64,000 nt of DNA from the IMG/VR virus record IMGVR_UViG_3300037313_001572, one strand, 5' to 3'. Shown piece after piece: positions 31,180 to 36,011 of this stretch (positions within the stretch are counted from its first letter, which is position 1; every line of letters starts with the position of its first letter). The DNA is from a virus. A program made the position numbers and the translations under genes. The notes beneath the pieces are model-generated. The model was given only the letters and a program-made list of their open reading frames with translations. It ran no database searches and was not told where the DNA came from.

Positions 31180-31834
31180 TCACAGGCCGCCCTGGTCCGC
31201 CGGGGCGGCCTTTTCTTTTACAGCGTTCCTAAGTCCAGCCTGATAGGCCGCCTGCATCGATAAGAGGATTCGTTCCGGATGCTGCAATCCCGCTTCTGAT
31301 GCCTCTGCCAGCCACAGCGCTTCGCGTTTGGCTATGAAATGGGTCAGCACCTCAATTTCAAGCAGGGTCAGCTTTACAGGCGTCGTGCTCATCCGAGTTC
31401 GGGTAGATGCGGGACGTGCTCAGTCGGCGGTCGGCGGCTGAAGGTGCTATGCTTCAGCGCGGTGCGCAGCAGCGGATCCGAGGCGGCGATTGTTTTTAGC
31501 GCCATGCAGAACTCAGCTATCGTGAGTTCGCTTTCGGCGGCCACGGGTTGGAGCTCGTCGGCGAGCCGGTGGAGGGCGAGGTGTTGCAGGTCGGGGTCGG
31601 TCATAATGTCTCGAAGTTTCTGGTTCCCTAATCCTCGCGCAGTATTTTGTGCTTGGCGTATTCGATGAGCCCGAGCGATGAGGCGCACGTTCCGCACGTC
31701 CTGTAACTGAGGTGGCAAAGCGTCGGGTCCCTGTCCTCCATCGCGTCTGTCTCGAAGACGAATAACGCCGAGTCGAAATGTTCGCGCATTAGCTCAGTGA
31801 TTTGGTTCAAGGCGGTAGTTTGTGCGTCGGTCAT
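31180..31834 (-). CDS. Three small hypothetical ORFs (31180-31392, 31389-~31606, 31628-31834)
   Basis: Overlapping start/stop chain downstream of the MTase. Confidence 0.45.
31184..31219 (+). terminator. Intrinsic terminator of the early plus-strand operon
   Basis: AGGCCGCCCTGG-TCCG-CCGGGGCGGCCT followed by TTTCTTTT. Confidence 0.7.
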
Positions 31835-31966
31835 AATGAAAGTGCTTTGGCGATTCGATGGGCTACGAGCAGTTGAGCACGGTGTCGTAGGTGCGCAGCT
31901 TCCCGTTGATGCGGATCCGTTCCCTGTAGGTGCGGTGTCCTCGTGGCCGGTGGATCGTTTGGCGCT

Positions 31967-33172
31967 TCATTGGATTGAGATGGCTCTGGTGATTCGGTCG
32001 CCGATTAGCCGAATGCAGTTAACCGCGAAGCTATTGCCGTGCGACTTGTAGCGCGGTCCGTCTTTGGCTGGTTTCCCTTTCACGGGAATTGCCGTGTAGT
32101 TGCGCGGAAATCCCTGCAATAACTCTGTCTCCCTTACGGTAAGACGCCTCACCTCGTATCTAGTTTTCCCCTCCTGGCCTGCATGGCATGCATTCCACAA
32201 TAGCCATTCGCGTGATATCGCCTCCCACACGCTGGAACTTTGCAAATTCGCCGCTCGTTCTCCTCCGAGTCCTTCCGAAGAGCCGTGAATTGATTGTCCT
32301 TCACCATGTTCGGATCGCCCCATTTCTTGAACCGCTGGTAATGCATCTCGCAATAACCCAATCCCTTCACTGGCTGCCCGCAGATGGCGCAAGACCTCCT
32401 TACACGATGCGCTCGGATGTGACAGCCACGACAAATACGCTGCAAGTTCGACCGTTCGTTGTTCGTGTGGTTCCCATCCAAATGATGAACGTCTTTCGCG
32501 TTGGGTTTCCCGCATCTCTCGCACGAGCCTTTTGGCACCATCTTCCGCGCATGGTAGTGCGTAACGGACGACTCCAAACTCTTCGATGGTCTGGCATCGA
32601 ATGCCGAAGCCATGCACTGCCGATTGCAGTATTTGCGACGGGAAAAATGAAGCAAGCACTCCAAGTCCCCATTCGGAAAACGCTTCCTCTCCAATTTCGA
32701 ACCGCAGTGCGCGCAGAACTTCAATGGTGTTGGTTTTAGTGGCATGCTCATAGGATTTTTCTTGGTGTGAAATCGCCACATACGAACGTGAGGTATCTGC
32801 CTGCTTGGAGTTTCCACACGAAAGCGTGTTGGCATTATCGTTGCCTTCCTGCACATCGGTTCCGTTGACGTGAATTGCCGTAACGACGCAGTTTCGAACG
32901 CCCTGGTCATTGTTTCCGGCGACCGCCCCGCCAGAGCGATACATGTCCGAGGTGACGGTTTGCGCGACCAGCGGCAGTCCGCGCCCGGTGCCGTCTTCCG
33001 ACGCGTCGAAGCCATCGGCCTTGAGCGTGTGTGCAACGAGGTTCGCATGTGATCCACCGCCAAGACTGGAGTCGCGCAGTGCTTGCGCTACTGGGTCGTC
33101 ATTCCACCATCCATGGCCTGTCTCTTGGAAAGTCCAGGTAGCCTCGTCAAAGAAACCTCCTTGAGGCGTCAC
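31967..33172 (-). CDS. C5-cytosine DNA methyltransferase, C-terminal part (TRD, motifs IX-X) carrying an in-frame HNH-shadow insertion
   Basis: VRRLTVRETELLQGFPRNYT (IX) and RYKSHGNSFAV (X); frame fuses to 33147..34061 if the 14-bp repeat has 1 or 4 copies. Confidence 0.8.
   Translation of the reverse strand: MTPQGGFFDEATWTFQETGHGWWNDDPVAQALRDSSLGGGSHANLVAHTLKADGFDASEDGTGRGLPLVAQTVTSDMYRSGGAVAGNNDQGVRNCVVTAIHVNGTDVQEGNDNANTLSCGNSKQADTSRSYVAISHQEKSYEHATKTNTIEVLRALRFEIGEEAFSEWGLGVLASFFPSQILQSAVHGFGIRCQTIEEFGVVRYALPCAEDGAKRLVREMRETQRERRSSFGWEPHEQRTVELAAYLSWLSHPSASCKEVLRHLRAASEGIGLLRDALPAVQEMGRSEHGEGQSIHGSSEGLGGERAANLQSSSVWEAISREWLLWNACHAGQEGKTRYEVRRLTVRETELLQGFPRNYTAIPVKGKPAKDGPRYKSHGNSFAVNCIRLIGDRITRAISIQ
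32149..32751 (-). CDS. HNH endonuclease with Zn-ribbons, nested in the +1 frame of the MTase
   Basis: CAHCG..KYCNRQC; CERCG..DVHHLDGNHTNNERSNLQRICRGCHIRAH; two CxxxxC..GYCxxH modules; ATG 32751 or 32745. Confidence 0.85.
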   Translation of the reverse strand: MSMPLKPTPLKFCAHCGSKLERKRFPNGDLECLLHFSRRKYCNRQCMASAFDARPSKSLESSVTHYHARKMVPKGSCERCGKPNAKDVHHLDGNHTNNERSNLQRICRGCHIRAHRVRRSCAICGQPVKGLGYCEMHYQRFKKWGDPNMVKDNQFTALRKDSEENERRICKVPACGRRYHANGYCGMHAMQARRGKLDTR

Positions 33173-34061
33173 TATCAGATGCCCCTCTTTCGTGCTGCTG
33201 TCCTGGCCCTTCGCGTCGCGCTCCTGAAGCGCCCACGCTACTTCCGGAATGTCCGCGCTCTGATGTCCGCGCTCTGATGTCCGCGCTCTCTACTGCGACT
33301 ACCGGGTCCTGTCCTCGCGTTTCTCCGGTTCGTTCAACACCCCTGCCACTGCTTGTAAGGCACGGCGCAGACTCGAAGGTAGTTCCTTTCCCCTGGCTTC
33401 GGCGCGGCGGAGAATTCCGGCGCAAGCCTTGGGCGTCAAGAAATAGCGGCGCGCGACTGGACCAGTCTCCAGAATCTCGGACAAGGAACACACGTCGGCG
33501 TCGTTGAGGGACAGCCCGAGGGTGTGATTCCACTCGCACGAACTGTGCATCCAGAGTGAACCACTCGACGAGCCCGCGGCTCCCAAGCGCCACACCGGCA
33601 TTTCGCCAGCCGTCTTCTGGAACGTCGACTTGGCACCCAGCCAGCTCTCCAACCACTGCAGCAAACGCCCGCCCTGCATCGTTGCTGAATAGACCGGGGA
33701 CGTTCTCGGCAATGGCCCATCTGGCTTTTGACCATTCGACGATTCGGCAGGCGACGTAGAAGAGCCCGCTTCGAGTAAGAGATCCATCTGCATGTGTGAG
33801 TCCTTTCTGTTTTCCGGCAACGCTCAAATCCTGGCAGGGGAAGCCGAAGATTACGGCGTCGATGTGGCCGAGAGCTTCGATTTGCTCCCGCGTGATCTTG
33901 GTGACGTCGCCTAGGTTTGGAACGTCTGGATAGTGGTGCCGCAGAACCGCACACGGGAACGGCTCGACCTCTGCCACGGCCACGCATTCCCAGCCGAGTG
34001 GCAGCAGGGCCACGGACGCGGCCTCGATCCCGCTGAAGAGGCTGATAAATTTGAATCTCAC
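33147..34061 (-). CDS. C5-cytosine DNA methyltransferase, N-terminal part (motifs I-VIII), frameshifted
   Basis: SLFSGIE (I), GFPCQD (IV), ENVPG (VI), VPQRRRRVF (VIII). Confidence 0.9.
   Translation of the reverse strand: MRFKFISLFSGIEAASVALLPLGWECVAVAEVEPFPCAVLRHHYPDVPNLGDVTKITREQIEALGHIDAVIFGFPCQDLSVAGKQKGLTHADGSLTRSGLFYVACRIVEWSKARWAIAENVPGLFSNDAGRAFAAVVGELAGCQVDVPEDGWRNAGVALGSRGLVEWFTLDAQFVRVESHPRAVPQRRRRVFLVRDSGDWSSRAPLFLDAQGLRRNSPPRRSQGKGTTFESAPCLTSSGRGVERTGETRGQDPVVAVESADIRARTSERGHSGSSVGASGARREGPGQQHERGASDSDASRRFL
33249..33289. repeat. 14-bp tandem repeat ATGTCCGCGCTCTG x~3
   Basis: Units at 33249, 33263, 33277 (last one 13/14). Confidence 0.95.
33299..33820 (-). CDS. Alternative-frame (+1) polypeptide within the C5 MTase (M.EcoHK31I beta-like)
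   Basis: CSLSEILETGPVARRYFLTPKACAGILRRAEARGKELP..L..AL motif. Confidence 0.6.
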   Translation of the reverse strand: MPENRKDSHMQMDLLLEAGSSTSPAESSNGQKPDGPLPRTSPVYSATMQGGRLLQWLESWLGAKSTFQKTAGEMPVWRLGAAGSSSGSLWMHSSCEWNHTLGLSLNDADVCSLSEILETGPVARRYFLTPKACAGILRRAEARGKELPSSLRRALQAVAGVLNEPEKREDRTR

Positions 34062-34241
34062 GGCATCAATAGGTTTAGGCGCATCTCTTCCACCATTTCC
34101 TGATATGCACGGTCTCTATCCGATGGGCGGATGTAGCATGGGTATTCCAGCCGCACAAAGACGTAGCTATCCTCGCTGCGATTGCCGCGCGCCTCCATGA
34201 CAAAAACGCTCTCTCGGATGGGACTGTGCTCGGTGAATTCT

Positions 34242-34604
34242 TCAATGATCGGCATGGGTGGGGATGATGTTGGGTGAAAAAGGAAGCCCGGCGAGCTCGC
34301 ACAGTTCGCGGGCGTGGTGGAGTTCGGCGTTTACAGCGTCGACATGGATACACGTCCAACGCTCTGGCTCTTCCCCGCGCCGTATAGGACACTCAATGCG
34401 GATATCGAAGTCTTTGCAGGAGCATCGACCACGGGGAAAGCCCGGGTCGTCCAAGTCGACTCGATACCAGTCGGGGCAGGCCGGGCGCTGGGAGCGGACG
34501 TCGTAGGTGCCCCGGTCGACTCTTCGCACTGCTAGAGGTTTGGCGTCCATCTCATTACGGCAATACTCCTGCGCAGCGAAGGCTGTAGTAGCTCCCGCGT
34601 CCAC
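34242..34604 (-). CDS. SWIM-type zinc-finger protein
   Basis: YDVRS..WYRVD..RCSCKDF..TCIHV. Confidence 0.65.
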   Translation of the reverse strand: MDAGATTAFAAQEYCRNEMDAKPLAVRRVDRGTYDVRSQRPACPDWYRVDLDDPGFPRGRCSCKDFDIRIECPIRRGEEPERWTCIHVDAVNAELHHARELCELAGLPFSPNIIPTHADH

Positions 34605-35239: not shown

Positions 35240-36011
35240 TGGAAGATTCCTCTTTCGCGCAACGCTCGATGTCAGCCATAGCCACCTCGTTCTTTTCGTA
35301 GAAGCGAACTGGAGCAACTGGGATCGACGAAGACGCCTTGTAAATCTGCTTGGCAGCGAACTCGGTCGATGTCCGTTCTTCCAGTTCCTTGCCAGCCTGA
35401 CCGGCAAGCGTGACGACCCACCCAGCGCGGCAGTGGGTCGTTTCGCAGGTGTGCCAGTTTCCCATATCAAGCTTGTTTCCGTTGTTGGTAACAGCCTCCA
35501 GAACCCGCTGGTGTATGTGCTTGATTTTAGGTATCTGCATCGGGTTCTTTGCGGGCGCCATATCCGAGCAACCCGAGCAACCCGAGCAACCCGAGCAGTC
35601 CGAGCAGTCCGAGCAGCGCGAGCAGCCCGAGCAGTCCGAGCAACCCGAGCAACCCGAGCAGTCCGAGCAGTCCGAGCAGTCCGAGCAACCCGAGCAGTCC
35701 GAGCAGCGCGAGCAGCCCGAGCAGTCCGAGCAGTCCGAGCAACCCGAGCAACCCGAGCAACCCGAGCAACCCGAGCAGTCCGAGCAGCGCGAGCAGTCCG
35801 AGCAGTCCGAGCAGTCCGAGCAACCCGAGCAACCCGAGCAGTCCGAGCAGCGCGAGCAGCGCGAGCAGTCCGAGCAATTCCAACAACCTTCGTTACCGCG
35901 CTCATGCGCCCAGTTAGGGTTGGCATCGGCGAACGATTGAGAGACGCCGTTAATGGCTTTGTCCTCGCGGTTGTAGAACGTGATATAGGATTCGAAGATT
36001 TGGGTTTTCAT
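35229..36011 (-). CDS. Cys-rich (SxC)n repeat protein with C-terminal LDMxxWHxCETTHCRAGW domain
   Basis: ~36 S(D/G/R)C triplets encoded by a 9-bp repeat (~35563-35880); the C-domain is usually seen with pentapeptide repeats in phages (from recall). Confidence 0.75.
   Translation of the reverse strand: MKTQIFESYITFYNREDKAINGVSQSFADANPNWAHERGNEGCWNCSDCSRCSRCSDCSGCSGCSDCSDCSDCSRCSDCSGCSGCSGCSGCSDCSDCSGCSRCSDCSGCSDCSDCSDCSGCSGCSDCSGCSRCSDCSDCSGCSGCSGCSDMAPAKNPMQIPKIKHIHQRVLEAVTNNGNKLDMGNWHTCETTHCRAGWVVTLAGQAGKELEERTSTEFAAKQIYKASSSIPVAPVRFYEKNEVAMADIERCAKEESSNDN

Follow-up and report, generated by a model that had tools for sequence, protein, structure and literature searches.

Inteins and group I introns that carry HNH or LAGLIDADG homing endonucleases, such as I-HmuI, are selfish elements that occupy a conserved site of a conserved gene and are removed by splicing. 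A different arrangement has been described in phage DNA methylase genes. The ShiLan domain is a 202-amino-acid insert in the DNA methylase gp65 of Mycobacterium phage ShiLan and is also present in about nine other actinophages (Gosselin et al. 2023, PMC9957025; Arsenault, Gosselin and Gogarten 2025, PMC11855218). The host frame is stop-free across this insert, features of introns or inteins are lacking, and the distribution is patchy (PMC11855218; PMC9957025). A zinc-finger HNH endonuclease of 195 amino acids is hidden in the third frame; it begins 18 nucleotides inside the insert, and its stop falls within the final four bases of the insert (PMC11855218; PMC9957025). It had 9 BLASTP matches, and leaderless initiation was proposed for it (PMC11855218). 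The methylase gp60 of Pacc40 contains an insertion with a hidden HNH-like open reading frame (ORF), the 160-amino-acid product of which is AP2/HNH-like (PMC11855218). In this study, we analyzed a locus of the IMG/VR virus record IMGVR_UViG_3300037313_001572, in a stretch of 64,000 nucleotides referred to here as the window, where an HNH ORF is nested out of frame within a C5 cytosine DNA methyltransferase (methylase) gene. With a probability of about 0.8, this is a mobile homing-type HNH gene that invaded the phage methylase gene just upstream of motif IX and is read through, not spliced.

The nested gene is an HNH endonuclease ORF of 200 amino acids on the minus strand (32751..32149), with an ATG start, a TGA stop, and CxxC zinc ribbons at its N- and C-termini. 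It lies within the C-terminal methylase ORF (31967..33172, minus strand), which encodes a repeat resembling a target-recognition domain (TRD), GFDASEDGTGRG, then the insert and motifs IX and X, and which matched PF00145 with 35.5 bits over residues 328-395. The HNH ORF occupies the +1 frame of this methylase ORF as read from 33172 to 31967 ((33172-32751) mod 3 = 1), its ATG being one base past a methylase codon start. The methylase frame is free of stops over the entire HNH and then runs straight into motif IX and motif X (GNSFAV, 32021..32038, minus strand), and the third frame of the minus strand is closed across the HNH region. Relative to insert-free methylase alleles, the insert measures 621 nucleotides (32773..32153, minus strand) and encodes a 207-amino-acid passenger peptide in the methylase frame. 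It is located between the TRD-like repeats and motif IX, directly after SRSYVA, which ends at 32774, and directly before VRRLT. The HNH ATG is 22 nucleotides inside the insert and the HNH stop overlaps the Val-Arg codons of motif IX; the insert consists essentially of the HNH ORF alone. Directly 3' of it is the DNA coding for motif IX (VRRLTVRETELLQGFP, 32105..32152, minus strand), which is likely the homing target or a co-conversion tract. An initial annotation of this DNA had described a Zn-ribbon HNH of about 200 amino acids in the +1 frame of a methylase, positioned after the TRD-like repeats and before motif IX, with the methylase frame staying open across it and resuming directly at motif IX. 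The ORF coordinates, the frame arithmetic, and the three-frame translation all agree with that description.

Recurrence of the nesting was analyzed in 61 loci encoding an HNH homologue at 40% identity or more. Locus retrieval with a single HNH protein as the query gave 2 loci only, and an alignment-based scan gave the larger set. The same +1-frame nesting in an open methylase ORF was found in 59 of the 61 loci, and the HNH was free-standing only in L059 and L062. In most of the nested loci, a single methylase frame covered motifs I through X, and the remaining frame was closed within a few codons. The HNH copies had diverged to about 45% identity, yet they were still nested. Synonymous codons were then permuted within each of 50 distinct HNH ORFs, and stops were counted in the methylase frame. 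All 50 distinct copies had 0 methylase-frame stops, whereas their permuted versions averaged about 2-13. For most copies, practically no permutation was free of stops, and for two short copies the stop-free share was no higher than 8%. For the HNH of the window, the permutations averaged 9.6 stops and none of the 300 was stop-free, compared with 0 stops in the actual sequence. Ahead of codons starting with AA, AG, or GA, 0 of 2517 codons ended in T, compared with 1580 of 5776 elsewhere. These results demonstrate that the open methylase frame over the HNH is not due to chance and that stops have been purged from it by selection.

We compared the two frames over the insert. Identity between copies averaged 51% in the HNH frame. 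In the methylase frame, which encodes the passenger peptide, it averaged 31%, compared with 27% for a null containing only the HNH sequence and stop avoidance. The most variable base was the third position of the HNH codons. Where columns of the methylase frame looked conserved, the cause was either a Cys codon of the HNH (YTG = Leu) or the avoidance of stops. The conserved residues of the methylase-frame insert are by-products of these two factors, and we do not claim that the insert forms a folded domain under selection. The HNH frame is the primary selected frame. In an AlphaFold2 model of the intact relative P0126 (670 amino acids), the catalytic N-domain and the motif IX-X regions were confident and the TRD-repeat region was disordered. 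The insert was modeled as helices with a predicted local distance difference test score (pLDDT) of 40-81, which is low to moderate. Since the methylase-frame identity is near the null, the conserved columns are by-products, and the P0126 insert has low-to-moderate confidence, the insert is best described as a tolerated passenger loop.

A total of 140 HNH homologues were found at 50-70% identity, and the HNH of the window is full length, with 99% coverage of the best homologues. Residues C77, C80, H90, N102, C107, C110, H111, and H115 were invariant in 42 homologues, and all of them are kept in the window HNH. A CxxC pair stands at either end of the protein, and a DVHH..N..N..CRGCH..H motif lies in its center. 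The core motif reads DVHHLDGNHTNN..NLQRICRGCHIRAH, in which the H..N..H residues and the CxxC..CxxC zinc site are present. The AlphaFold2 model of the HNH had a mean pLDDT of 93.6 and a predicted template modeling score (pTM) of 0.58, with strands at 87-90 and 103-106 followed by a helix at 108-115, as in a beta-beta-alpha-metal core. The HNH matched phrog_1271 (HNH endonuclease) in PHROG with E = 4.5e-22, and a weak profile match was obtained with the IscB HNH domain (E 0.023). These results indicate that the nested ORF is a member of a real HNH protein family, for which nuclease activity is predicted.

The distribution of the element was examined among methylase genes. This HNH was absent from all 80 methylase loci retrieved with the N-domain profile. 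On a tree of 108 N-domains, the 26 carriers needed 20 state changes, compared with a shuffled mean of 23.4, and at least 8 changes were forced by well-supported branches. The window methylase was sister to the insert-free locus L096. HNH and methylase identities were nearly uncorrelated (r2 = 0.12); in L052 and L053, the HNH copies were 100% identical and the methylase N-domains 55% identical. A comparison with insert-free alleles had been proposed in the initial annotation. It showed that sister alleles without the insert exist and that the boundaries are clean, with the insert directly before VRRLT in the sister pairs L023/L120, L030/L110, L033/L112, and L009/Pan4. About half of the carriers, the window included, have an altered downstream flank of the ECEFLQGFPRG type, compared with ECERLQGFPD in free alleles. 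The usual carrier form of motif IX is VRRLT.EECEFLQGFPRG, and the free-allele form is VRRLTP.ECERLQGFPD. In most short-form copies, motif IX is encoded by GTC AGA AGA TTA AC, and the HNH consequently ends in ..GAT TAA. The altered carrier flank would look like the co-conversion expected of a homing endonuclease, or like target-site immunity, with a cleavage site predicted nearby. The initial annotation had read the HNH as a homing endonuclease targeting methylase genes. At the sequence level, the patchy distribution, the empty sister alleles, the near absence of correlation, the L052/L053 pair, and the changed flank support this reading and suggest that the element behaves as a homing endonuclease.

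Signals for splicing and for translation of the HNH were also searched. Rfam over 31500-34500 gave no family at E <= 1, and Pfam on the methylase-frame product gave only PF00145, with no Hint or intein domain. Splicing of the insert, the outcome that the initial annotation had set against its own interpretation, thus left no intron or intein signal in these computations, and the insert appears, as far as can be seen, to be neither an intron nor an intein. Motifs resembling Shine-Dalgarno (SD) sites, of at least 4 nucleotides, were found ahead of 74% of the HNH starts, compared with 29% of control positions within the same genes. This enrichment points to internal initiation at the HNH ATG. The genes of the window generally have no SD sites and have A/T-rich leaders. 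The HNH leader is A-rich, and its resemblance to the leaders of the other window genes, which had been noted at the outset, was borne out by the leader comparison.

The preferred reading builds on the anatomy, the selection for an open frame, the patchy distribution, and the discordant divergence of HNH and methylase, all of which were obtained by direct analysis. Neither RNA nor protein splicing would take place, and the methylase would be translated straight through the HNH in another frame. The product would be a methylase with an extra, mostly unconstrained loop of about 200 residues between the target-recognition region and motif IX, and selection would purge the HNH codon combinations that create stops in the methylase frame. 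We infer that the methylase tolerates this loop and that ribosomes initiate internally, at the HNH ATG, to produce the HNH as a protein of its own. When carrier and insert-free phages infect the same cell, the HNH would most likely cut the insert-free allele within or close to the conserved DNA of motif IX. Repair would then copy the HNH in, along with a short altered downstream flank.

The host gene encodes a phage Dmt-like C5 cytosine DNA methyltransferase in which motifs I, IV, VI, and VIII as well as IX and X are all present, and in the window it is divided into two ORFs. The N-terminal methylase ORF (33147..34061, minus strand) contains motifs I (FSGIE), IV (FPCQDLS), VI (ENVPG), and VIII (QRRRRVF) and matched PF00145 with 100.7 bits; its GTG start overlaps the upstream stop. 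This half is 45% identical to the Dmt of Sinorhizobium phage NV1.1.1. Using tblastn with NV1.1.1 Dmt, Bcep22 gp25, and Pan4 gp35, the frame change was placed between GQDPVVAV (33291) and about 33200. The site coincides with a perfect 14-nucleotide tandem repeat of 2.9 copies (33249..33289, no strand), detected with Tandem Repeats Finder, which puts the methylase halves in different frames. The gene would be open over 688 codons with one copy of the repeat and over 702 codons with four, and two or three copies break the frame. A single uninterrupted frame, which the window methylase lacks, was seen in relatives, and the closest relative found, L096 (68% identity over the N-domain), has a single frame and no repeat. 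The window combines an interrupted methylase frame with an intact HNH. The window methylase is probably off, or else phase-variable or split, and the 14-nucleotide repeat could act as a phase switch, have inactivated the gene by mutation, or be a variant within the population. Decoding of two TAGs upstream of the C-terminal half, through TAG reassignment or a suppressor tRNA, was also considered. This was dropped because the repeat arithmetic explains the frame break and the only tRNA in the window is a tRNA-Gly. The C5 methyltransferase M.AquI, which Karreman and de Waard reportedly described in 1990, is said to be made from two overlapping ORFs split between motifs VIII and IX. It would be a precedent for a C5 methyltransferase of two polypeptides and is relevant to the two-ORF methylase of the window. 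However, the split in the window is caused by a 28-nucleotide repeat gain in an otherwise single-ORF family, and any assembly of the two halves is hypothetical.

The state of the host gene bears on the other explanations that can be given for the nesting. The HNH might be a domesticated partner of the methylase, acting either as a methylation-checked nuclease in a compact restriction-modification (R-M) or addiction unit or as an extra DNA-binding module. The two genes are physically inseparable and necessarily share one transcript, and the nesting is old, copies down to about 45% identity still being nested; the module idea was also raised by the authors of PMC11855218. However, none of the 80 methylases retrieved by N-domain (80/80) has this HNH, the histories of HNH and methylase are discordant, and the methylase-frame peptide is nearly without constraint of its own. 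In addition, a broken methylase beside an intact HNH should be lethal or strongly counter-selected if protection were needed. The compact selfish R-M-like unit put forward in the initial annotation is disfavored because a nuclease dependent on this methylase should not survive beside a frameshifted one, and the HNH, absent from those 80 loci, moves independently of it. We therefore consider domestication unlikely. The broken frame might instead mean that the locus is a dead relic in this phage, with a methylase pseudogene and an HNH that is intact in sequence but no longer expressed or active. The homing cycle predicts decay of homing endonuclease genes after fixation, and a methylase frameshifted by triplication of a 14-nucleotide unit and an HNH ATG without an SD site would be in keeping with such decay. 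On the other hand, the HNH is full length with every invariant residue kept, the methylase frame over it is still stop-free, and a frameshift by repeat number is reversible by slippage and could be an assembly or population variant, which makes a dead relic improbable. Removal of the insert, which would leave a mature methylase without the loop, is very unlikely, whether through a small ribozyme not yet described, an intein-like reaction of an unconventional kind, or bypass by the ribosome. Read in the methylase frame, the first residues of the insert (EVLRALRFEIGEEAF) do loosely resemble the downstream flank (EVRRLTVRETELLQGF), as was likewise noted for ShiLan (PMC11855218), and the motif IX of some relatives has a stop-containing 6-nucleotide insert that must be decoded somehow. 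However, RNA splicing gives no reason for stop purging over 600 nucleotides in 50 lineages and is disfavored because such purging would be pointless if the RNA were spliced. Moreover, the insert is little more than the HNH ORF, with no room for a ribozyme core, and neither an Rfam match nor a Hint domain was found.

Several points also weigh against a read-through homing element. The Pfam HNH scores were under the curated cut-offs (HNH_3, 18.6 compared with 24.8 bits; HNH, 16.5 compared with 21.4; families PF01844 and PF13392). Foldseek with the whole HNH model gave no match in the PDB at E <= 0.001, probably because of the beads-on-a-string character of the model, which has a pTM of 0.58; among the HNH-like rows, 5h0m and Cas5-HNH ranked best, with low probability. 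The HNH start of the window has no SD site, as is also the case for the other genes of this phage. A ribozyme of an undescribed class may be outside the reach of Rfam, and repeated losses, instead of gains, could account for part of the patchiness. For this lineage, cleavage, homing, read-through, and protein size are predictions drawn from sequence.

Other overlapping frames were observed in this methylase family. A conserved ORF in the +1 frame (33793..33299, minus strand) overlaps methylase motifs IV-VIII. It starts with MQ(L/M)..F and ends with ..SLS.ILETG..P.RYFL..KAC.GILRRAEKRGK.LP..L..AL, and it is also present in NV1.1.1, Bcep22, and Pan4, in L001, L002, and L003, and in about 100 distinct loci. 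Over the approximately 45 codons past motif VIII, the +1 frame was 57-75% identical between loci, compared with 20-45% for the methylase frame, and the variable base was the third position of the +1 ORF itself. This comparison of identity and codon position replaced a stop-count permutation for the +1 ORF over motif VIII, which was weak and partly circular because the region is set by the ORF's own stop. The ORF was found in more than 3,254 database proteins, mostly annotated as 'hypothetical' and 115-210 amino acids long, and in P0323, P0335, P0356, and P0390 it is in frame with the TRD and motifs IX-X. No Pfam family was found for it. It resembles either a genuine overlapping gene or the beginning of a C-terminal subunit of the methylase.

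Long-form HNH alleles of relatives have an in-frame stop in motif IX, RRLTPL*LEC(E/C)RLQGFP, encoded as CTT TAG CTT or CTT TGA CTT. It was seen in L004 (3793-3840), L007 (4642-4689), L018 (1868-1915), L177, and L178, all of them loci other than the window, and consists of a 6-nucleotide insert between identical Leu codons. Downstream of this stop, purifying selection persists (L004 compared with L007: nonsynonymous divergence, dN, 0.21; synonymous divergence, dS, 1.58), and the stop is a candidate for a +6 hop of the ribosome, or for read-through, in association with the homing element. In L096 (4362-4982), a different zinc-ribbon HNH ORF of 206 amino acids lies in another frame within an insert of about 230 amino acids between motif IX (QGFP) and motif X, and the methylase frame is again open. 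In L004 (1821-2438), a second nested ORF, called as an HNH_3 gene, is in the +2 frame directly after motif VIII. Since the methylase frame of L004 is open across it, one methylase gene can hold two hidden nucleases. ORFs in the same frame and position are also present in L022, L028, L032, and L041, and the size of these nested ORFs, that of L004 included, is about 205-270 amino acids. Gene callers dealt poorly with such loci: in L007 (3011-3643) and L095 (1997-2431), the +1 ORF was called in place of the methylase N-half, and in L009 (3139-3945), an antisense ORF was called and a 719-codon methylase frame was left uncalled. Elsewhere in the window, a long tandem array with a unit of 9 nucleotides (34.8 copies) or 63 nucleotides at 35564-35876 keeps several frames open on both strands, and its CSDCSGCS-type, ARTARV-type, and PEQSEQ-type translations appear in the ORF list. 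A broader idea, which we put forward tentatively, is that the methylase gene is a stack of translated frames, composed of the overlap ORF, the HNH, and a slippage-prone 14-nucleotide repeat that toggles the methylase while the nested genes are still expressed. Over its final 45 codons or so, the overlap ORF shows stronger purifying selection than the methylase frame does, and on this view it would be a genuine gene of ancient origin or else the point where a C-terminal methylase subunit truly begins. Foreign-frame read-through would then be general in the family; further nested HNH genes could be carried elsewhere in the gene, as in L004 and L096, and in certain lineages ribosomes would hop over the 6-nucleotide CTT-stop-CTT.

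These findings extend the hidden-HNH solution beyond about ten mycobacteriophages to a large, selected lineage in environmental phage C5 methyltransferases, in which a homing endonuclease would spare its host gene by out-of-frame read-through instead of splicing. The codon signature, in which no T-ending codon stands before a codon starting with AA, AG, or GA, can be used to find further elements. Gene callers mis-annotate such loci, keeping just one of the two genes, the HNH or the methylase, and long 'methyltransferases' in databases carry a segment of roughly 200 amino acids that is no domain. Homing can be assayed directly on its predicted target, which is the DNA of motif IX in empty alleles.

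Compared with inteins and group I introns, the element described here is similar in that a selfish nuclease would insert at a conserved site of a conserved gene that survives the insertion, and would spread through homing in which the flanks are co-converted. Those elements are spliced at the RNA or protein level, whereas here no sign of splicing was seen and the host apparently keeps the insert. The gp60 gene of Pacc40 is a second, independent case of an out-of-frame nuclease ORF in a phage methylase, and methylase genes have thus been invaded repeatedly in this way. It differs in the methylase family and in the site, and related free-standing copies are found upstream of the methylase in other phages.

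The closest system is ShiLan, and the hidden-HNH design has already been published (2025). Both inserts have a stop-free host frame and an HNH of roughly 195-200 amino acids with flanking zinc fingers, which starts about 20 nucleotides in and stops at the 3' edge. Both lack an intron or intein signature, are patchy in distribution, and have divergence uncorrelated with that of the host, and structure prediction gives both in-frame products a helical loop of low confidence. When the HNH of the window was compared with 50,697 phage records by tblastn, no actinophage was found at E <= 1e-5. The only matches at this threshold were Staphylococcus phage CUB-EPI_14 and two Komagataeibacter phages, and the CUB-EPI_14 match, which lies near 37.8-38.2 kb of ON325435.2, is nested under an annotated cytosine methyltransferase. 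Most copies of the present lineage have SD-like sites, whereas leaderless initiation was proposed for ShiLan. The lineage is also far larger, with 140 HNH homologues and 410 representative clusters of the passenger peptide compared with 9 BLASTP matches. The HNH is in the second (+1) frame here, and that of ShiLan is reported in the third frame. The element of the window appears to be a different, larger lineage of the same design, in another relative frame.

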